Source: Trypanosoma brucei
Lineage: Eukaryota
Reading direction: 5' to 3'
DNA length: 64,000 nt
Assembly (NCBI GenBank): GCA_000002445.1
Contig: CM000207.1
Span: 896,001-960,000 of the forward strand
The notes under the pieces are model-generated. The model did no database searches. It was not told where the DNA came from and saw only the letters and a list, made by a program, of their open reading frames with translations. This document shows, in pieces, positions 38,440 through 46,036 of this stretch (its first letter is position 1; every line of letters starts with the position of its first letter). The translations under genes were made by a program, and so were the position numbers.

Positions 38440-39708
38440 ATGCCCCGTGAGAACTTCTCACCGAAGCACGTTGATCCTGTGAACTTCCACAACGACGATG
38501 ACGAAGACGAAGAAGAATTCGATCTCTTAAAAGTGATGAATGATATGAAGGTGCACGAACGCCGTAATGTGTATGCTCTGAAAGGTTTACTTAATGAATA
38601 CAAAAGTGTACGGGCGAAGTTCCGTGAAGAGCTCAGCCGGCTTGAGGTGGAGCATCTGCGTGACGCCCAGCATTTCCACGATATTCGCGCTGCCATCGTG
38701 TGTGGAACGCGCGACATCACTGATGAGGAAATAGCTGCTGCCCAGGCATCGTTGGCGGCTGAGACGACGTCTTCTGGTGTTCGTGCAATTTCCTCCAGCG
38801 ATGAAGAACCCGACGCGGGTGATGCAAAGCGGGATGAAAATAAAGCCGGAAAGAAGTCCGTTCGTGTGGTGTCTCCTCAGGAAGATCCCGGCCGCCTCGA
38901 GAAGGCTGCTGCCGCACCTGATGGCGGCATTCCTGACTTTTGGCTCACAGCCATGTGCAACGCCGAGGTGTTGGACTCAACCATTACGGAGCGAGATCGC
39001 CCAGCGCTAAGTCACCTGCAAGACATTCAGTTAGAGCACATTGATGGGGATCCACATAAAGGAGTTCGTATTAACTTCCACTTCTCACCGAATGAGTACT
39101 TTACCAACGAGGTCCTTAGCAAAACATACCGGATGGCCTTTGATGAAGACAGTGGTGAAGTAGAGATTGATTCCATGAGCGCCACTCCCGTTGACTGGAA
39201 GTCGCGTGAGAAGAACCTTACCGTTATCCTTAAGAAAAAGAAACAACGACACAAGACCAAGAGGGAGATTCGTGTGGTGACGCGCGAGGAGAAATGCCCG
39301 TCGTTTTTCAATTTTTTCACCAACCCTCTGGGCGGCGAGGACGAGGACGAGGACGAGGACGGGGACGGAAAAGAGGATGAAAAAAGGGATGAAAAGGAAA
39401 AGGGAAAGAAAACTGACGACGATGACGATGACGATGATGATGATGAAGAAGAGACGGCAGAGTTGCACATTGAATTGGGGCAGGTGTTGATGGAGGAACT
39501 CGTGCCAAAGGCCGCCTTCTACTATACAGGTAAGTCCGTTGAGGAAACGGCACTGGCACTCATAAAGAAATTTAGCGTTGAATCAGATGACGAAGACGGG
39601 GACGAAGATGATGACAGTGATGACGGAAGCGACATCGGTGGTAAATCATCTAAGAAACCCGCACCCAGTGGTGGTAAAACTAATCAGCCGGAGTGCCAGC
39701 AGCAGTAA
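38440..39708 (+). CDS. Nucleosome assembly protein (NAP1-like histone chaperone) with long acidic tracts
   Basis: NAP signature segments ALKGLLNEYKSVRAKFREELSRLE, GIPDFWLTAMCNAEVL and FHFSPNEYFTNEVLSKTY. Poly-D/E runs (GEDEDEDEDGDGKEDE..., DDDDDDDDDEEE, DDEDGDEDDDSDDG). The first ATG is at 38440; the 38416 start is a TTG artefact. Confidence 0.8.
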   Translation: MPRENFSPKHVDPVNFHNDDDEDEEEFDLLKVMNDMKVHERRNVYALKGLLNEYKSVRAKFREELSRLEVEHLRDAQHFHDIRAAIVCGTRDITDEEIAAAQASLAAETTSSGVRAISSSDEEPDAGDAKRDENKAGKKSVRVVSPQEDPGRLEKAAAAPDGGIPDFWLTAMCNAEVLDSTITERDRPALSHLQDIQLEHIDGDPHKGVRINFHFSPNEYFTNEVLSKTYRMAFDEDSGEVEIDSMSATPVDWKSREKNLTVILKKKKQRHKTKREIRVVTREEKCPSFFNFFTNPLGGEDEDEDEDGDGKEDEKRDEKEKGKKTDDDDDDDDDDEEETAELHIELGQVLMEELVPKAAFYYTGKSVEETALALIKKFSVESDDEDGDEDDDSDDGSDIGGKSSKKPAPSGGKTNQPECQQQ

Positions 39709-40570
39709 AAAAGGAAAATAAAAAACAAACTAACAGACAAAGAGGTATTTCCCCCTCGCAATCCCTCAAAGCGGGTGGTAAAGCAGGGAAAATAAGCAAG
39801 GCGTCTTTGTTCCGAATAAAAGGTTGGTACCCAAATAAGCAATTAACAGTCGCCATATAGTTCCTGTCTGTTTTTAATTCACTTTACGTCTCTTAGTTTT
39901 TGAGCTGAATGTTCTCACCGCCCCTTCTCCTTCCCTTGGACTTTCGCGTCTGCCATTCCCCCACAGGGCGTAACGTTGGAACCTCCTACAATCAGATACA
40001 ACCACAATGGAAGTGTTTTGAATGCGTTGGTCGGACCGAGTTATCGTAAATCCCATCTAAAAAGGAGTAAAAGAGGAGGAAGATAGCAAAAGAAAAGCCA
40101 TGGAAAAGACAGGAAAAAAAGGAATGAAGTGAGGAAACGGAAGGGGAAGTGCGTATTTGGGTTAAATACTATAATTATATTGTGTGACATTCTTTTTTTT
40201 TTTTTTAGTGCGTGTGTGGTTGTTTGTCGGGGGTTCAAGGGAGGGGGGAAGGGGGGAAAGAGAAAACACAAAGAAAAAACAAATAAACATTAAAGGAAGA
40301 TGCAAAGAAGTGCAGGAGATGGTAGTGGCGTGGATGTTCGGAAGCGAAAATGATAATAACAATGATAATGATAATGGTAATGCGCAAACGAAGTAAACGA
40401 GAAGGGATGGCTTCCGCATATCTCTTTTCGGTCTCATCTTCCCTGAAAACAAAGTTTCCTTGTTATTACTCGTCTGGTTCCATATTTCATCCTTTTCATT
40501 ACACTACCTGTATGTGGCCAAGTATCCGCTGTTAAATTTTGTTAGCGCCATGTCCACAGTTACATTCTGT

Positions 40571-40626
40571 GTCCCGTATTTCTCCTTGAACTTCTGCTAC
40601 TTTCCTCCTCTTGTGTTTTGGTACAG
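40571..40626 (+). promoter_or_regulatory. Polypyrimidine tract plus AG acceptor upstream of TXNPx copy 1 (duplicated at 42818-42873 for copy 2)
   Basis: gtcccgtatttctccttgaacttctgctactttcctcctcttgtgttttggtacag. AG at 40625-40626, about 120 nt before the ATG. Confidence 0.55.
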
Positions 40627-40745
40627 AAAAAGCAACTCATAGCTAGCAAGTCAGTTTTTCACCAGCTAACTTCAAGTATTCGGCATATACCCATATCAAG
40701 GTAAAAAGGGAGAAAAAGAAAAAAGAAATAAAGATACAATTAAAC

Positions 40746-41345
40746 ATGTCCTGCGGTGATGCGAAACTCAACCACCCTGCGCCTCACTTCAATGAGGTGG
40801 CGCTGATGCCTAATGGCACTTTCAAGAAAGTTGATCTCGCCTCTTACAGGGGAAAGTGGGTGGTACTATTCTTTTATCCTCTCGACTTCACGTTTGTGTG
40901 CCCTACTGAAATCTGCCAATTCTCTGACCGCGTGAAGGAGTTCAACGACGTCGATTGTGAGGTTATTGCATGCTCAATGGACAGCGAATTCTCACATCTT
41001 GCATGGACAAATGTTGAACGCAAGAAGGGTGGATTGGGGACGATGAACATTCCCATCCTCGCTGATAAAACGAAATCAATCATGAAGGCTTATGGTGTAC
41101 TTAAGGAGGAAGACGGTGTTGCATACCGCGGTCTTTTCATCATTGACCCCCAACAGAACCTTCGTCAAATTACCATCAACGATCTTCCAGTTGGTCGTAA
41201 TGTTGACGAAACACTTCGACTTGTGAAGGCCTTCCAGTTTGTGGAAAAACACGGTGAGGTGTGCCCCGCTAACTGGAAACCTGGAAGCAAGACAATGAAG
41301 GCTGATCCCAACGGATCCCAAGATTACTTCAGCAGCATGAACTAA
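40746..41345 (+). CDS. TXNPx: Tryparedoxin peroxidase (cytosolic typical 2-Cys peroxiredoxin), copy 1
   Basis: 199 aa. Peroxidatic Cys context FTFVCPTEI and resolving Cys context [12 protein letters not shown]. The whole protein is the 2-Cys Prx fold ([10 protein letters not shown]...[25 protein letters not shown]). Confidence 0.92.
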
Positions 41346-42992
41346 AATGGACTTGTTTCTAAGTTTGCAGTGTATTTCGTTCCTTTCACGAAGCGAGTCA
41401 CGCTGTTTTGGGAGTTCCTGTAGGAGCAATTACGGAAGCACATAAAATTTTCTATAGCCATGAAGAGGAGGATTACCTCCTGTAACGATGGGGTGATGCT
41501 TTCCCTTTTCGTGGTTTAATGCAAGACAGGGAGAGAATTACTATATATATATATATTTTCGTATTGAATATTAAGGTTACGATTTTTGTCACTATCTTTT
41601 TTTTTTATGGCACTGCAGTGTCTTATTGTTTGACTTCGTTCGAGTGCCGCAGCGTGGGAAAGGCAATGTGAAACACGAAAGGAAGGATAAACTTATAGGG
41701 TATTAGGAGTGAAAAATAGGGAAAAAGAGAATAGGCGGGGAGCCTGCTCAGTTTTAGCGAGAAGGCGTTGATATATGTCCGTCGGCAACTCTCATTTTCT
41801 TTCTTCTTTTTTTTTCCTTCTTTGCGTGTTTGCCAGTAGCTAACTCAACAAGATGCTTGTGCTTGTGATTTCGCACTTCACTATGAAGTCTGAGAAGGGG
41901 TTTAGCGATGGGTTCCTCCCAATACTGGGTCATCTCATTTTACACCATGCCTTGCCGATTTTTTTTTGTTCCTTTCCTCTCCACCCACCATTTACCCCTG
42001 GATCCTTACTTTTACCTTCCCCTTCCCTACATGCAAAAGCACAAACCTGTAATTGGTGCAGCTGAAGTAACGGAATAGGGTTTAAATACCCCCAATAGAT
42101 AAGTGCAAAACATACTTGTTACTCACCTATGTTAGTCCACTTGGATAAATGGTGGAAAAGCAAGGCCCATCGTCGCATAAAAGGTGCTCGCGGGGCCCGT
42201 TTTGCGAGTCTTAAGTTTCATGTTCTATTCCTTGGCAGTGTTATTTGTTTTGTTGAGTGGGTGATGCGATCGACTGACTGCTACGAGGATCCCTCTTACC
42301 ATATTGCTCCACCACCAGTCGCGCCTCCTCCACCGTTGGCTGCGTCGATTGGATATGCACTGAGTCGGGAAATGCCACATCTGCGTGTCATGGAACTAGA
42401 GAAAGGGATACCGTCACATTTACCGAAGACGCGGGGTGTTGACTACGTGTTGCTGCGAAGCGAAGGGAGGTTTGTTTAACACCTCAGGTGCACAACATAT
42501 ATATATATATATATGTTTGTGCTAGTGTTACCGTGTTCATCAAGTTTATGTGCATGCAATTTGGTTAGTGGTTTACTTAGGAAGGGGACAACATTTTGTA
42601 CGCAACGTAAGTCGCTTCACTCCTTTGTGAGGGCCAAACCCCCACTCAGGATCTCGCAATGGCGTAAGTGAATAAAAACTGGCAATAACCGCTCTTGTTT
42701 AATTTTACTCTGATTCGCATCTGGACTTCCTCCCCTCTGCACCGTTTCTCTTATGACCGAGAGGTATGTGGTCAAGCACACAATTTTGTTAGCGCCATGT
42801 CCACAGTTACATTCTGTGTCCCGTATTTCTCCTTGAACTTCTGCTACTTTCCTCCTCTTGTGTTTTGGTACAGAAAAAGCAACTCATAGCTAGCAAGTCA
42901 GTTTTTCACCAGCTAACTTCAAGTATTCGGCATATACCCATATCAAGGTAAAAAGGGAGAAAAAGAAAAAAGAAATAAAGATACAATTAAAC

Positions 42993-43592
42993 ATGTCCTG
43001 CGGTGATGCGAAACTCAACCACCCTGCGCCTCACTTCAATGAGGTGGCGCTGATGCCTAATGGCACTTTCAAGAAAGTTGATCTCGCCTCTTACAGGGGA
43101 AAGTGGGTGGTACTATTCTTTTATCCTCTCGACTTCACGTTTGTGTGCCCTACTGAAATCTGCCAATTCTCTGACCGCGTGAAGGAGTTCAACGACGTCG
43201 ATTGTGAGGTTATTGCATGCTCAATGGACAGCGAATTCTCACATCTTGCATGGACAAATGTTGAACGCAAGAAGGGTGGATTGGGGACGATGAACATTCC
43301 CATCCTCGCTGATAAAACGAAATCAATCATGAAGGCTTATGGTGTACTTAAGGAGGAAGACGGTGTTGCATACCGCGGTCTTTTCATCATTGACCCCCAA
43401 CAGAACCTTCGTCAAATTACCATCAACGATCTTCCAGTTGGTCGTAATGTTGACGAAACACTTCGACTTGTGAAGGCCTTCCAGTTTGTGGAAAAACACG
43501 GTGAGGTGTGCCCCGCTAACTGGAAACCTGGAAGCAAGACAATGAAGGCTGATCCCAACGGATCCCAAGATTACTTCAGCAGCATGAACTAA
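42993..43592 (+). CDS. TXNPx: Tryparedoxin peroxidase, copy 2 (nucleotide-identical to copy 1)
   Basis: The CDS is identical to 40746-41345 at the nucleotide level, and so is about 211 bp of 5' flank. The repeat offset is 2247 bp. Confidence 0.92.
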
Positions 43593-44659
43593 AATGTGTC
43601 TCGTTTTAATTTTTGTTTTGACTTCTACCTGTGATTTATTATTAATTGTTTTGTTGGGTCGTTCTTCTGGTGTATACAAGGTTTTGTCGTCTCTCCTGTG
43701 TGCCTTACCGGCTTTACTGTTCGTGACGCGTTAAAGCAGCCGCGGAGTGAACAAGTAGCGGTGTTTGGGAAATGGGTTTGGCGGCACTGGATTTACTTTT
43801 CCCTTCCCCCTCTGAGTTTTTTAGCGATCTTTACTTGTTTCCTTTTTGATTGCCCATCACTGCCACTGATATGATACTCACGTTATTCTATTGTGAGATG
43901 TATCAGGTGTGCTGGAAACGCTTTCAGTGGTTCTGATGTTGTAGGGTAAACGATTTCGGCGGCTTTATATCTAAGTTCCACTATGTATGAGGATACTTTG
44001 CATTACTTATATATACATATCTATACTTTTCGTTTTATCTCTTTTTTTTTCTAATTTACCACAATATGTTCGATTTCCCACATGTGTAGACACGCCATTA
44101 GGGAGGCGGAAAGCGAAAGCGTGCGTAATATTTATGTGGGGAAGCGTGGTAAGTTTGATTTGGATAGCCAGTCGGGAACAAATGACGAGGTCTCGGGAAG
44201 GGAAAGGGGAAACGGATGGAGAAGTACAAACTTTTAACGTGTGGTGACTGCATTTTTTTTTCCTTTGAGGGAAGACAGGGAGTTAACTGACACACCGAGA
44301 ATGGTGACGGAAACTATTCCAGTCACACGAACACCAGGGAGGGTATATGCTCGTCGCACTTTTCTTGTGCCCCCGCTGCATATATGCGTGTGTGCATGTA
44401 TAGTAGGTAATCTCTTTCTACTTCATCGCTTCTTGCATTTACATTGTCGTTTTTGTATTATTATTATTATTTTTTTTTTTTTTTGGTATACGTGATTGTA
44501 TACATTTGTACGCACGCGCCGGATGGTGATAATTTTTGTAGAAGTAAGGAGATAACTGGAGTAGGAAGCCCAGACGTGAAGTGTTGCGCCCGATCAGGCC
44601 TTCACGCACTGGATTTATTTTTCTTTTGGCGTTTACTTCTCGACGGTGCCTCTGGGTGG

Positions 44660-46036
44660 ATGTATGGCATTAGTGAAGATGGTGGGGCTTTTGCTGAGTG
44701 TTATTTTGCACAGTACCCACTAGGAATGGGCAAAACGCCACCACCGCCATTTGTTCGCGAAGCGGTTCTTGCCCTACGGAAACATACAGACCGCTCTCCA
44801 CCTTCTTCTACAGATAAATCGCTAGCACTTGTACCGGCGACGGCAGCACTTTCGAGTCACGAAGCCACAGAGGGTAATGTTTCGGGTAATTCGGACAAGC
44901 TTGCGCAAACAACGGAGAGGACACGTGAGGCGTTAGAACTGGTGTTGCAGGAGCGCCGGAAAGAAGAGGAAGAAAGGGACTTCAGTGGCCGAAACCTAAA
45001 GCGTGGCCAGCGAAAAAAGCCAGCACTTGAGTTGACCCTCTCCGCTGACGTTGCAGCCGTTGGGATGCACGACCCGGCACCCATTGTGCGATCTCCTACC
45101 AAAGTCCCAAAAGAGCCAGCAGATTTCTCCGGCGATCGTAATGGAAATACATCTTCTGCCAGTACCACCGTCGTGCCGTTCAGCATTAGCAACTGGAAGA
45201 ATAAACGCAAGTTGATCATATCCCTGGAGCAGCGCATTGCTCAGCACGCCGAGGCTCGACCGGTGGGTGGTGAGAGTATTAGCGATAATGTGATGCAGCT
45301 GGCCGTTGCGATGCAGCAGGCAAGAAAAGAGGTGGAAGCCGAACAACTTGCCCGTGAGAAGGCGCGAATGGAAGAAGAGGAACGACGGCAGGCGGAGCGG
45401 GAGGCCGAAGCTACCCAGCGGGCGAAAGAAATACTGGAGAAAACGGCATCAGATGCATTGCATTCATCAGGTGACAGAAAGAAAGAAACTCGAGAAGAAC
45501 GGCTTGAGCGTATTCGGCTGGAGAGGGAGCTGCGGGAGCGAGAGAAGCAGCAAGAATTGCGGCAACGTCGTTTGGCCAAGGCTGCCACGCGCTTAGGCAT
45601 GTCAGTGGAGGCGCTTGAAGCCGATGAGGAACTGTTGAAGAATATTGATAACCCAACAACTACCCGTATTGGCGCTGGTTCCGACTATATTTGCCCTCCT
45701 AGTGGTGGCGGCGTATCGACAGGGAACAAAGCCGCTGGAGCAGGCCAAAGTGAATATGGTGAGCGCCCGCCAACGCTACACGCTGACGAATTGGAGGAGG
45801 ACACTCGCCCCCCTGGAACCTGCGGCATCCGTAAAGGTGTTTTTGGCTCAGCGGTCATAAGTAACGAGGGTATCCGTCGCGAGATGGAAGCACTGGCTAA
45901 GTTGGAAGAGGGAGGGAGTGAGCCAAAGGATGGGCTGCGGCTTGTCGGTGACGATGACCTGTCAAGCGGCGATGATGAAGATGATGGGTTAGGAATGGAC
46001 AAACTCATGAAGAAGAAAAAGAAGCGCCGTCTGTAG
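44660..46036 (+). CDS. SNW/SKIP-domain spliceosomal protein (Prp45/SNW1 homologue)
   Basis: N-terminal MYGISEDGGAFAECYFAQYPLGMGK aligns with human SNW1 LLEDFGDGGAFPEIHVAQYPLDMGRKK. The invariant SNWKN signature is present (VPFSISNWKNKRKLIISLEQRIAQ). An R/E-rich helical region and a polybasic C-terminus (KKKKKRRL) are typical of the family. The ORF-track start at 44444 (TTG) lies inside the upstream poly-T splice tract. The first ATG after the tract and AG is 44660. Confidence 0.7.
   Translation: MYGISEDGGAFAECYFAQYPLGMGKTPPPPFVREAVLALRKHTDRSPPSSTDKSLALVPATAALSSHEATEGNVSGNSDKLAQTTERTREALELVLQERRKEEEERDFSGRNLKRGQRKKPALELTLSADVAAVGMHDPAPIVRSPTKVPKEPADFSGDRNGNTSSASTTVVPFSISNWKNKRKLIISLEQRIAQHAEARPVGGESISDNVMQLAVAMQQARKEVEAEQLAREKARMEEEERRQAEREAEATQRAKEILEKTASDALHSSGDRKKETREERLERIRLERELREREKQQELRQRRLAKAATRLGMSVEALEADEELLKNIDNPTTTRIGAGSDYICPPSGGGVSTGNKAAGAGQSEYGERPPTLHADELEEDTRPPGTCGIRKGVFGSAVISNEGIRREMEALAKLEEGGSEPKDGLRLVGDDDLSSGDDEDDGLGMDKLMKKKKKRRL

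Follow-up and report, generated by a model that had tools for sequence, protein, structure and literature searches.

Two identical tryparedoxin peroxidase genes of Trypanosoma brucei as probable first and last members of an old interleaved array

The window studied here, a 64-kb stretch of Trypanosoma brucei DNA (64,000 nucleotides; contig CM000207.1, positions 896,001 to 960,000), carries two tandem genes for the cytosolic tryparedoxin peroxidase (TXNPx), the main cytosolic hydroperoxide-detoxifying enzyme of trypanosomes. We propose that these genes are very probably the first and the last TXNPx copies of an ancient array, in which TXNPx is interleaved with an unrelated gene named "developmentally regulated protein" (DRP), and that recombination between copies has homogenized them. 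The array has as its upstream neighbor a nucleosome assembly protein-like gene (NAP), whose product does not differ from EAN76638.1 of strain TREU927, and the window is therefore most probably part of TREU927 chromosome 9.

Extent of the repeat and layout of the array

Direct comparison of the two copies gave one exact run of 815/815 nt at an offset of 2247, window positions 40535-41349 being the same as 42782-43596. This run is made up of 211 nt upstream of the ATG, the 600-nt coding sequence (CDS), and 4 nt past the stop codon, and it is far beyond chance. The features concerned are as follows.

40535..41349, + strand: block copy 1, regarded as homogenized (5' flank and 5' untranslated region [UTR], TXNPx CDS, and 4 nt), 815/815 nt as in copy 2
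40746..41345, + strand: TXNPx CDS copy 1, open reading frame of 199 aa, typical 2-Cys peroxiredoxin, stop codon at 41343-41345
41350..42781, + strand: spacer of 1432 bp, comprising the 3' UTR of the first copy, the DRP gene, and the DRP 3' UTR
42129..42479, + strand: DRP, 116 aa, with homologues across trypanosomatids
42782..43596, + strand: block copy 2, regarded as homogenized, the last array copy in the assembly, 815/815 nt as in copy 1
42993..43592, + strand: TXNPx CDS copy 2, open reading frame identical to copy 1, stop codon at 43590-43592

A sequence-only reading of this DNA had described the two units as base-identical between these edges, with unrelated 3' UTRs behind them, and pairwise alignment bears out the description, with 0 substitutions inside the units and flanks that are unalignable on both sides. 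Identity ends on the right at AACTAAAATG|G in copy 1 against AACTAAAATG|T in copy 2; ungapped identity beyond the block is 20-34%, about the random level, and blastn extends the block rightward by just 18 weakly similar columns. As for the 3' UTRs, the description holds for the sequence 3' of each stop codon: when the downstream regions, 41350-42128 and 43597-44659, were aligned locally with gaps, no significant match appeared beyond a single 28-nt pyrimidine-rich stretch (z = 4.6 against mononucleotide shuffles, reached by 1/200 shuffles). Upstream, the two copies have in common a 13-nt word, GTATGTGGCCAAG, beside the boundary (z = 0.6) and nothing else. No third TXNPx copy was found by blastn in the 64-kb window.

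The translation of both genes is an exact match to the UniRef representative TDX_TRYBR (7 Trypanozoon entries), as well as to EAN76639.1/EAN76642.1 of TREU927 and CBH14230.1/CBH14232.1 of T. b. gambiense. Its Pfam matches, all over the curated cut-offs, are AhpC-TSA (PF00578, E = 2.3e-39), 1-cysPrx_C (PF10417, E = 5.9e-16), and PF08534 (E = 3.2e-15), and both catalytic cysteines are found in the translation, the peroxidatic Cys52 in DFTFVCPTE and the resolving Cys173 in GEVCPANW. We take the genes, on these matches, to encode cytosolic TXNPx, and tryparedoxin-dependent peroxidase activity would follow from identity with the named protein.

The layout of the locus can be written NAP-[TXNPx-DRP]n-TXNPx-SKIP, with n = 1 in the TREU927 window. 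Two TXNPx and one DRP are likewise found in T. b. gambiense DAL972 and in Leptomonas pyrrhocoris, four and three in T. b. equiperdum (GCA_003543875.1) and in each of two T. cruzi assemblies, and ten and nine in L. major. Throughout those loci n+1 TXNPx go with n DRP, and SKIP invariably comes after the last TXNPx. DRP occurs across Trypanosomatidae and adjoins TXNPx in every locus fetched. Since simple independent duplications of a TXNPx-DRP or DRP-TXNPx pair do not give an n+1:n count, the alternating arrangement most parsimoniously dates to the trypanosomatid ancestor. The layout being older than the trypanosomatid radiation, the two 3' contexts of TXNPx, on the DRP side and on the SKIP side, are old positional differences. 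A plain two-gene duplication with later drift of the 3' UTRs, as the sequence-only reading pictured it, does not survive this comparison: the spacer carries a conserved DRP gene, and the layout is common to T. cruzi, Leptomonas, and L. major. The alternation with DRP is visible in annotation, and we found no paper discussing it.

Within a genome, TXNPx CDSs are 99.5-100% identical in Trypanosoma and 97% in Leptomonas, whereas between species they are 68-80% identical overall (T. brucei versus T. cruzi, 76%; versus Leptomonas, 68-70%) and 49-52% identical at third codon positions (T. brucei versus T. cruzi, 49%). With a duplication older than the species compared and paralogues within a genome more alike than orthologues between species, the TXNPx copies are therefore under concerted evolution. 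Substitutions are also shared in a lineage-specific manner. Between the T. cruzi assemblies L007 and L008, CDS divergence is 0.7%, a difference common to essentially all four copies of each, and three of the four copies of L008 are identical, the fourth differing by about two further bases; a polymorphism that moves between positional copies is among the seven sites described below. Counted from the ATG, the block shared by first and last copies runs from about -210 to +604 in T. brucei, from -318 to about +700 in T. cruzi, from +17 to +595 in Leptomonas, and from -233 to +595 in L. major, where it is 829/829 identical. The homogenized block is thus similar in extent in each lineage, and the T. 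brucei pattern is the normal state of the locus across the family. This cross-genome comparison supports homogenization, through gene conversion or unequal exchange, of the CDS and 5' flank only, as had been suggested earlier for gene conversion.

Several of the loci fetched have features of their own. In T. melophagium (GCA_022059095.1, L005, 4564-13947), a TXNPx-SKIP-SPPS segment of ~5.4 kb (SPPS, polyprenyl synthase) is repeated with 99.8% identity over >2.1 kb, and a single DRP precedes the second TXNPx, a derived version of the layout; it could have arisen from an ancestral TXNPx-DRP-TXNPx by unequal exchange followed by loss of one unit. The ten TXNPx of L. major alternate with nine DRP (GCA_916722125.1, OU755549.1, 466483-503977) and fall into three 3' classes: one of 199 aa made up of copies 1-3, one of 190 aa that diverges at +545 and comprises copies 4-9, and the last copy by itself, again of 199 aa, for which divergence begins at +595. 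Copy 6 is apparently frameshifted. The first TXNPx of Leptomonas pyrrhocoris (L009, 7112-7710), annotated as 154 aa, is frameshifted near codon 30 relative to the second, owing to either an assembly error or a pseudogene, and further differences between the pair lie at the N-terminus and in the final two residues. Logan contig ERR7929162_4585 (L004, 2365-2998), in which a TXNPx CDS with 30 nt upstream is joined to unrelated opposite-strand genes, was left out as likely chimeric or engineered; an opposite-strand Gly/Met-rich protein of 262 aa starts ~100 nt away, and the contig possibly follows a chimeric path through an A-rich stretch.

Exchange between copies and its alternatives

Homology between the first and last copies is limited to TXNPx and ~200 nt upstream, the other flanks belonging to different neighbors. 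We propose a model in which misaligned copies recombine, by unequal sister-chromatid exchange together with gene conversion, and would do so only within this segment, because the homology shared by first and last copies exists only there. Repeated overwriting would keep the block identical or nearly so and would also alter copy number, and the flanks, tied to different neighbors (NAP or DRP upstream, DRP or SKIP downstream), would have diverged past alignment. Such an array may serve gene dosage, supplying an abundant enzyme from a genome without gene-specific promoters, according to the general rationale given for trypanosome arrays (PMC1855330).

Variation within T. brucei points to recent exchange. 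We aligned nine TXNPx copies from four Trypanozoon genomes (TREU927, T. b. gambiense, T. b. equiperdum, and T. equiperdum OVI), which revealed seven variable sites. Four of them fall within the CDS and must be synonymous, since all Trypanozoon TXNPx proteins are identical (100%); of the other three, one belongs to the 5' UTR and two to the 5' flank, upstream of where splicing is predicted. Sites 40705 and 40904 separate TREU927 and OVI from T. b. gambiense and T. b. equiperdum, and no genome has more than one base at either site among its copies. A T at site 41147 is carried by copy 1 in T. b. gambiense but by copies 2-4 in T. b. equiperdum. The first copies of T. b. gambiense and T. b. equiperdum have bases of their own at 40571 and at 40575, and the 19 nt upstream of these also differ; in these other genomes of the T. 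brucei group, first and other copies are 4 differences apart, and identity starts at 40563, 28 nt further in than in the window.

40535..40562, + strand: 28-nt stretch in which copy 1 of the window has the internal-copy sequence (nine-copy alignment)

At 40535-40562, T. b. gambiense, T. b. equiperdum, and T. equiperdum OVI carry ACATTATGTGTACACTC(G/T)C. The resulting copy 1 junction, CCGCTGTTA|AATTTTGTTAGCG, was seen in the TREU927 window only, among the genomes aligned, and the right edge, 4 nt past the stop codon, is the same in all four genomes. Given this shift of 28 nt between the window and the other strains, the left edge therefore looks like a movable conversion or crossover boundary and not a fixed duplication junction, and both the perfect identity and the precise place of that edge are peculiar to this strain or its assembly. 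Exchange within T. brucei is thus recent. Moreover, the internal 2.26-kb units of T. b. equiperdum are one single-nucleotide polymorphism and two microsatellite indels apart, and amplification of whole units by unequal exchange is consistent with such near-identical units.

Some points weigh against this reading. Seven variable sites among nine copies are too few for a formal test such as GENECONV, and conversion and unequal crossing-over are indistinguishable in a sample of this size. The splice and poly(A) sites considered below were predicted from the sequence and not mapped. Alignments of T. brucei, T. cruzi, and T. melophagium detected no cross-species conservation in either 3' UTR class, the 3' UTR classes and upstream regions having only T-runs and pyrimidine tracts in common, so that the sequences speak neither for conserved regulatory elements nor against them. 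Finally, a single assembly is the source of the perfect identity, of the left junction seen nowhere else, and of the count of two copies, all of which could partly be artefacts of repeat assembly.

We regard the stronger form of this last point as somewhat unlikely, namely, that TREU927 truly has at least three units, the reads of which were pooled, the consensus homogenized, and the units collapsed, so that the perfect identity, the two copies, and the odd left junction are partly products of assembly. The 4 differences between first and other copies come from independently assembled relatives, and the CCGCTGTTA|AATTTTGTTAGCG junction is confined to copy 1 of the TREU927 window. Trypanozoon assemblies range from one TXNPx copy in T. 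equiperdum OVI to two in the window and in DAL972 and four in T. b. equiperdum, with collapse and real variation not separable without reads; the single OVI copy (GCA_001457755.2, L001, 9800-10605) has the upstream flank of a first copy and the downstream flank of a last copy, the product expected whether the assembly collapsed or an unequal crossover deleted units. In the literature, TREU927 TXNPx genes go by three identifiers (Tb927.9.5750, Tb927.9.5770, and Tb927.9.5860), with SPPS as Tb927.9.5890. Since there are more gene identifiers between the first TXNPx and SPPS than genes in the window, a later version of the TREU927 reference apparently contains more units. The genome paper on T. 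b. gambiense also cautions that how many repeat units are assembled can be arbitrary (PMC2854126). A collapsed longer array, raised as a possibility from the perfect identity, is hence plausible in view of the four copies of another Trypanozoon assembly and the three TREU927 identifiers. However, a chimeric junction requires spanning reads, and the first-copy flank and the internal-type 28 nt join cleanly. The same seven-site haplotype in T. equiperdum OVI argues that the block sequence is real, and the long-read assembly of L. major, with its 829/829 match of first and last copies, argues that perfect identity is biologically normal. An assembly effect would touch only the degree of identity and the copy number, leaving the architecture and concerted evolution unaffected.

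These findings have practical consequences at the TXNPx locus: the copy number in reference assemblies is not to be trusted, reads from the CDS or 5' UTR are unassignable to a copy and 3' UTR reads alone discriminate, and knock-out, RNA interference, and tagging designs must allow for several identical copies and the interleaved DRP.

If a segment of 815 bp or 2247 bp had been duplicated in T. brucei very recently, with identity reflecting youth and no conversion, this would account for zero differences in 815 nt, but we find it highly improbable. A 2247-bp period predicts 4494 nt of periodic sequence, whereas 3062 nt are seen and the flanks are unalignable; the TXNPx-DRP-TXNPx layout with the same neighbors is present in T. 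cruzi, Leptomonas, and Leishmania; and polymorphisms are common to different positional copies across strains. Least credible of all is that two old copies stay the same without exchange, through nothing but purifying selection on the protein and 5' UTR, for although TXNPx is a conserved enzyme and its protein is 100% conserved in all Trypanozoon copies, synonymous sites and the noncoding 5' flank are identical within a genome against third positions only ~49% identical between T. brucei and T. cruzi, and the CDS differences between strains are all synonymous, yet at two of the substitutions a genome has one and the same base throughout its copies. Recombination between the copies of an old array remains our favored explanation.

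DRP, processing signals, and the two 3' contexts

The gene order of the window is TFIIB, NAP, TXNPx, spacer, TXNPx, SKIP/SNW, SPPS, and glutamate dehydrogenase. The neighbors of the array and the predicted processing signals, which were located by pyrimidine-tract scan, are listed here.

38440..39708, + strand: NAP, upstream neighbor, translation identical to EAN76638.1 (T. b. brucei TREU927), Pfam NAP in syntenic loci
40591..40626, + strand: predicted polypyrimidine tract (40591-40619) and first AG (40625-40626), likely trans-splice acceptor of TXNPx copy 1
41788-41827, + strand: alternative tract upstream of DRP, with AG at 41835-41836
41958..42039, + strand: predicted polypyrimidine tracts upstream of DRP, with AG at 42038-42039
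42838-42873, + strand: copy 2 equivalent of the predicted TXNPx splice acceptor region
43597..44659, + strand: region 3' of the last TXNPx (3' UTR and intergenic) up to the SKIP/SNW start codon, 98-99% identical to its equivalents in other Trypanozoon
44464-44484, + strand: predicted pyrimidine tract before SKIP, with AG at 44540
44660..46036, + strand: SKIP/SNW-domain gene, downstream neighbor, open reading frame, PF02731 in syntenic genes

DRP is a real gene under purifying selection. A database search found homologues in T. congolense (84%) and T. vivax (74%), with further ones in T. cruzi, T. rangeli, Leptomonas, Strigomonas, Leishmania, Porcisia, and Novymonas, and in T. melophagium a TXNPx gene has a homologue of 114 aa (68% identity; tblastn E = 2e-42) immediately upstream of it. 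An alignment of 10 sequences has 36 invariant columns, and nonsynonymous divergence (pN, ~0.2) is well below synonymous divergence (pS, ~0.75-0.82, saturated). The protein has a strongly basic N-terminus, a proline-rich motif PPPVxPPPP, and a hydrophobic segment (residues 26-46) corresponding to one predicted membrane helix; its AlphaFold model, with a mean pLDDT (predicted local distance difference test) of 62.5, is confident just for one long helix (residues 20-50). A Pfam scan assigned DRP to no family, and literature searches on "developmentally regulated protein" and Tb927.9.5760 returned nothing specific to it.

We also considered the spacer as a decayed copy of neighboring genes and rejected the idea, as blastn (word size 7) and tblastx against the window found no homology and the only match was that of DRP to T. 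melophagium. The spacer is 97-98% identical to those of T. b. gambiense and T. b. equiperdum, the latter having three. (TA)n/(AT)n microsatellites lie in it at window positions 42490-42522 and 41542-41556, with lengths that differ between units and strains, and the former is flanked by a short inverted repeat, GCACAACATATATA...TATATGTTTGTGC. At the locus, Tandem Repeats Finder reported short microsatellites only, and an Rfam scan of the whole window at gathering thresholds gave no RNA family. Upstream of the array (39300-39700, + strand), the NAP-like protein ends in long acidic Asp/Glu runs and varies in length with them, being 422 aa in TREU927 and OVI and 420 aa in T. b. gambiense and T. 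b. equiperdum.

The polypyrimidine tracts and the AG at 42038-42039 suggest that DRP is processed as its own mRNA, and the predicted signals upstream of DRP suggest a 3' UTR of roughly 300-600 nt for TXNPx copy 1. For the TXNPx genes themselves, the predicted tract and AG fall inside the block, in agreement with the earlier statement that the 5' flank holds the splice acceptor. All copies would be expected to give the same 5' UTR and protein, because the block includes the predicted splice acceptor and the 5' UTR. Their 3' UTRs would fall into two classes, the first and internal copies having the DRP-proximal one and the last copy the SKIP-proximal one.

The two 3' UTR classes are real and old. 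Whether they confer different mRNA fates is about an even call; if they do differ in regulation, this would explain the separate context of the terminal copy. Such a difference is plausible in view of the stage specificity reported for the orthologous Leishmania copies (PMC4263403) and of a hint from published single-cell RNA sequencing mapped to TREU927 with extended UTRs, in which Tb927.9.5770 and Tb927.9.5860, whichever 3' UTR each of them may carry, are separate, with different cluster associations and opposite changes between day 7 and day 23. A bolder and rather unlikely proposal is that the strict alternation of TXNPx and DRP is not a passive relic: DRP would be functionally coupled to TXNPx, through co-dosage or through processing signals that set the TXNPx 3' end, and the DRP-proximal and SKIP-proximal classes would represent an ancient two-channel life-cycle regulation in all trypanosomatids.

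Comparison with known arrays

The TRYP/Pxn1-3 array on Leishmania chromosome 15 is the orthologous locus, with TFIIB upstream and [TXNPx-DRP]n-TXNPx-SKIP as in T. brucei, and the extent of the L. major block (829/829, -233 to +595) is near that of T. brucei. Its copies are reportedly stage specific, Pxn1 being expressed in amastigotes and Pxn2 and Pxn3 in promastigotes (PMC4263403), and their number differs between isolates (PMC6262978). L. major differs in having 10 copies against 2-4, three 3' classes, and divergent C-termini (199 aa and 190 aa), so that divergence starts inside the CDS (+545 or +595), whereas the T. brucei proteins are identical and divergence starts 4 nt past the stop codon. 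Moreover, NAP adjoins the array in Trypanosoma and is absent from the Leishmania and Leptomonas loci fetched.

The tandem arrays of T. brucei, surveyed in 2007 by Jackson, are thought to raise dosage under polycistronic transcription; they are homogenized by gene conversion or unequal exchange, and their first and last copies have curtailed or entirely different noncoding flanks (PMC1855330). Comparison with T. b. gambiense revealed subspecies-specific sequence mosaics in such arrays (PMC2854126). The main text of the survey contains none of the terms "tryparedoxin," "peroxidase," and "Tb09.160.42" (PMC1855330), and the survey has been described as covering arrays with >3 copies (PMC2854126). 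The TXNPx locus resembles the surveyed arrays in homogenization, in odd terminal flanks, and presumably in dosage, and it differs from them in that its repeat unit consists of two unrelated genes, one of which alone is common to the terminal copies.

In the HSP70 locus of Leishmania, identical coding regions lie head to tail, and the different 3' UTR of the last gene (HSP70-I and HSP70-II) has been shown experimentally to alter mRNA abundance and translation. That locus belongs to another gene family and genus and has no interleaved gene, and regulation, experimental there, is only inferred for T. brucei TXNPx. The TXNPx locus is hence a further example of known trypanosome array behavior and leaves the current understanding of trypanosome genome biology unchanged. 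It offers a clean case in which concerted evolution is confined to one gene of a two-gene unit, with the same block boundaries recurring in Trypanosoma and Leishmania.

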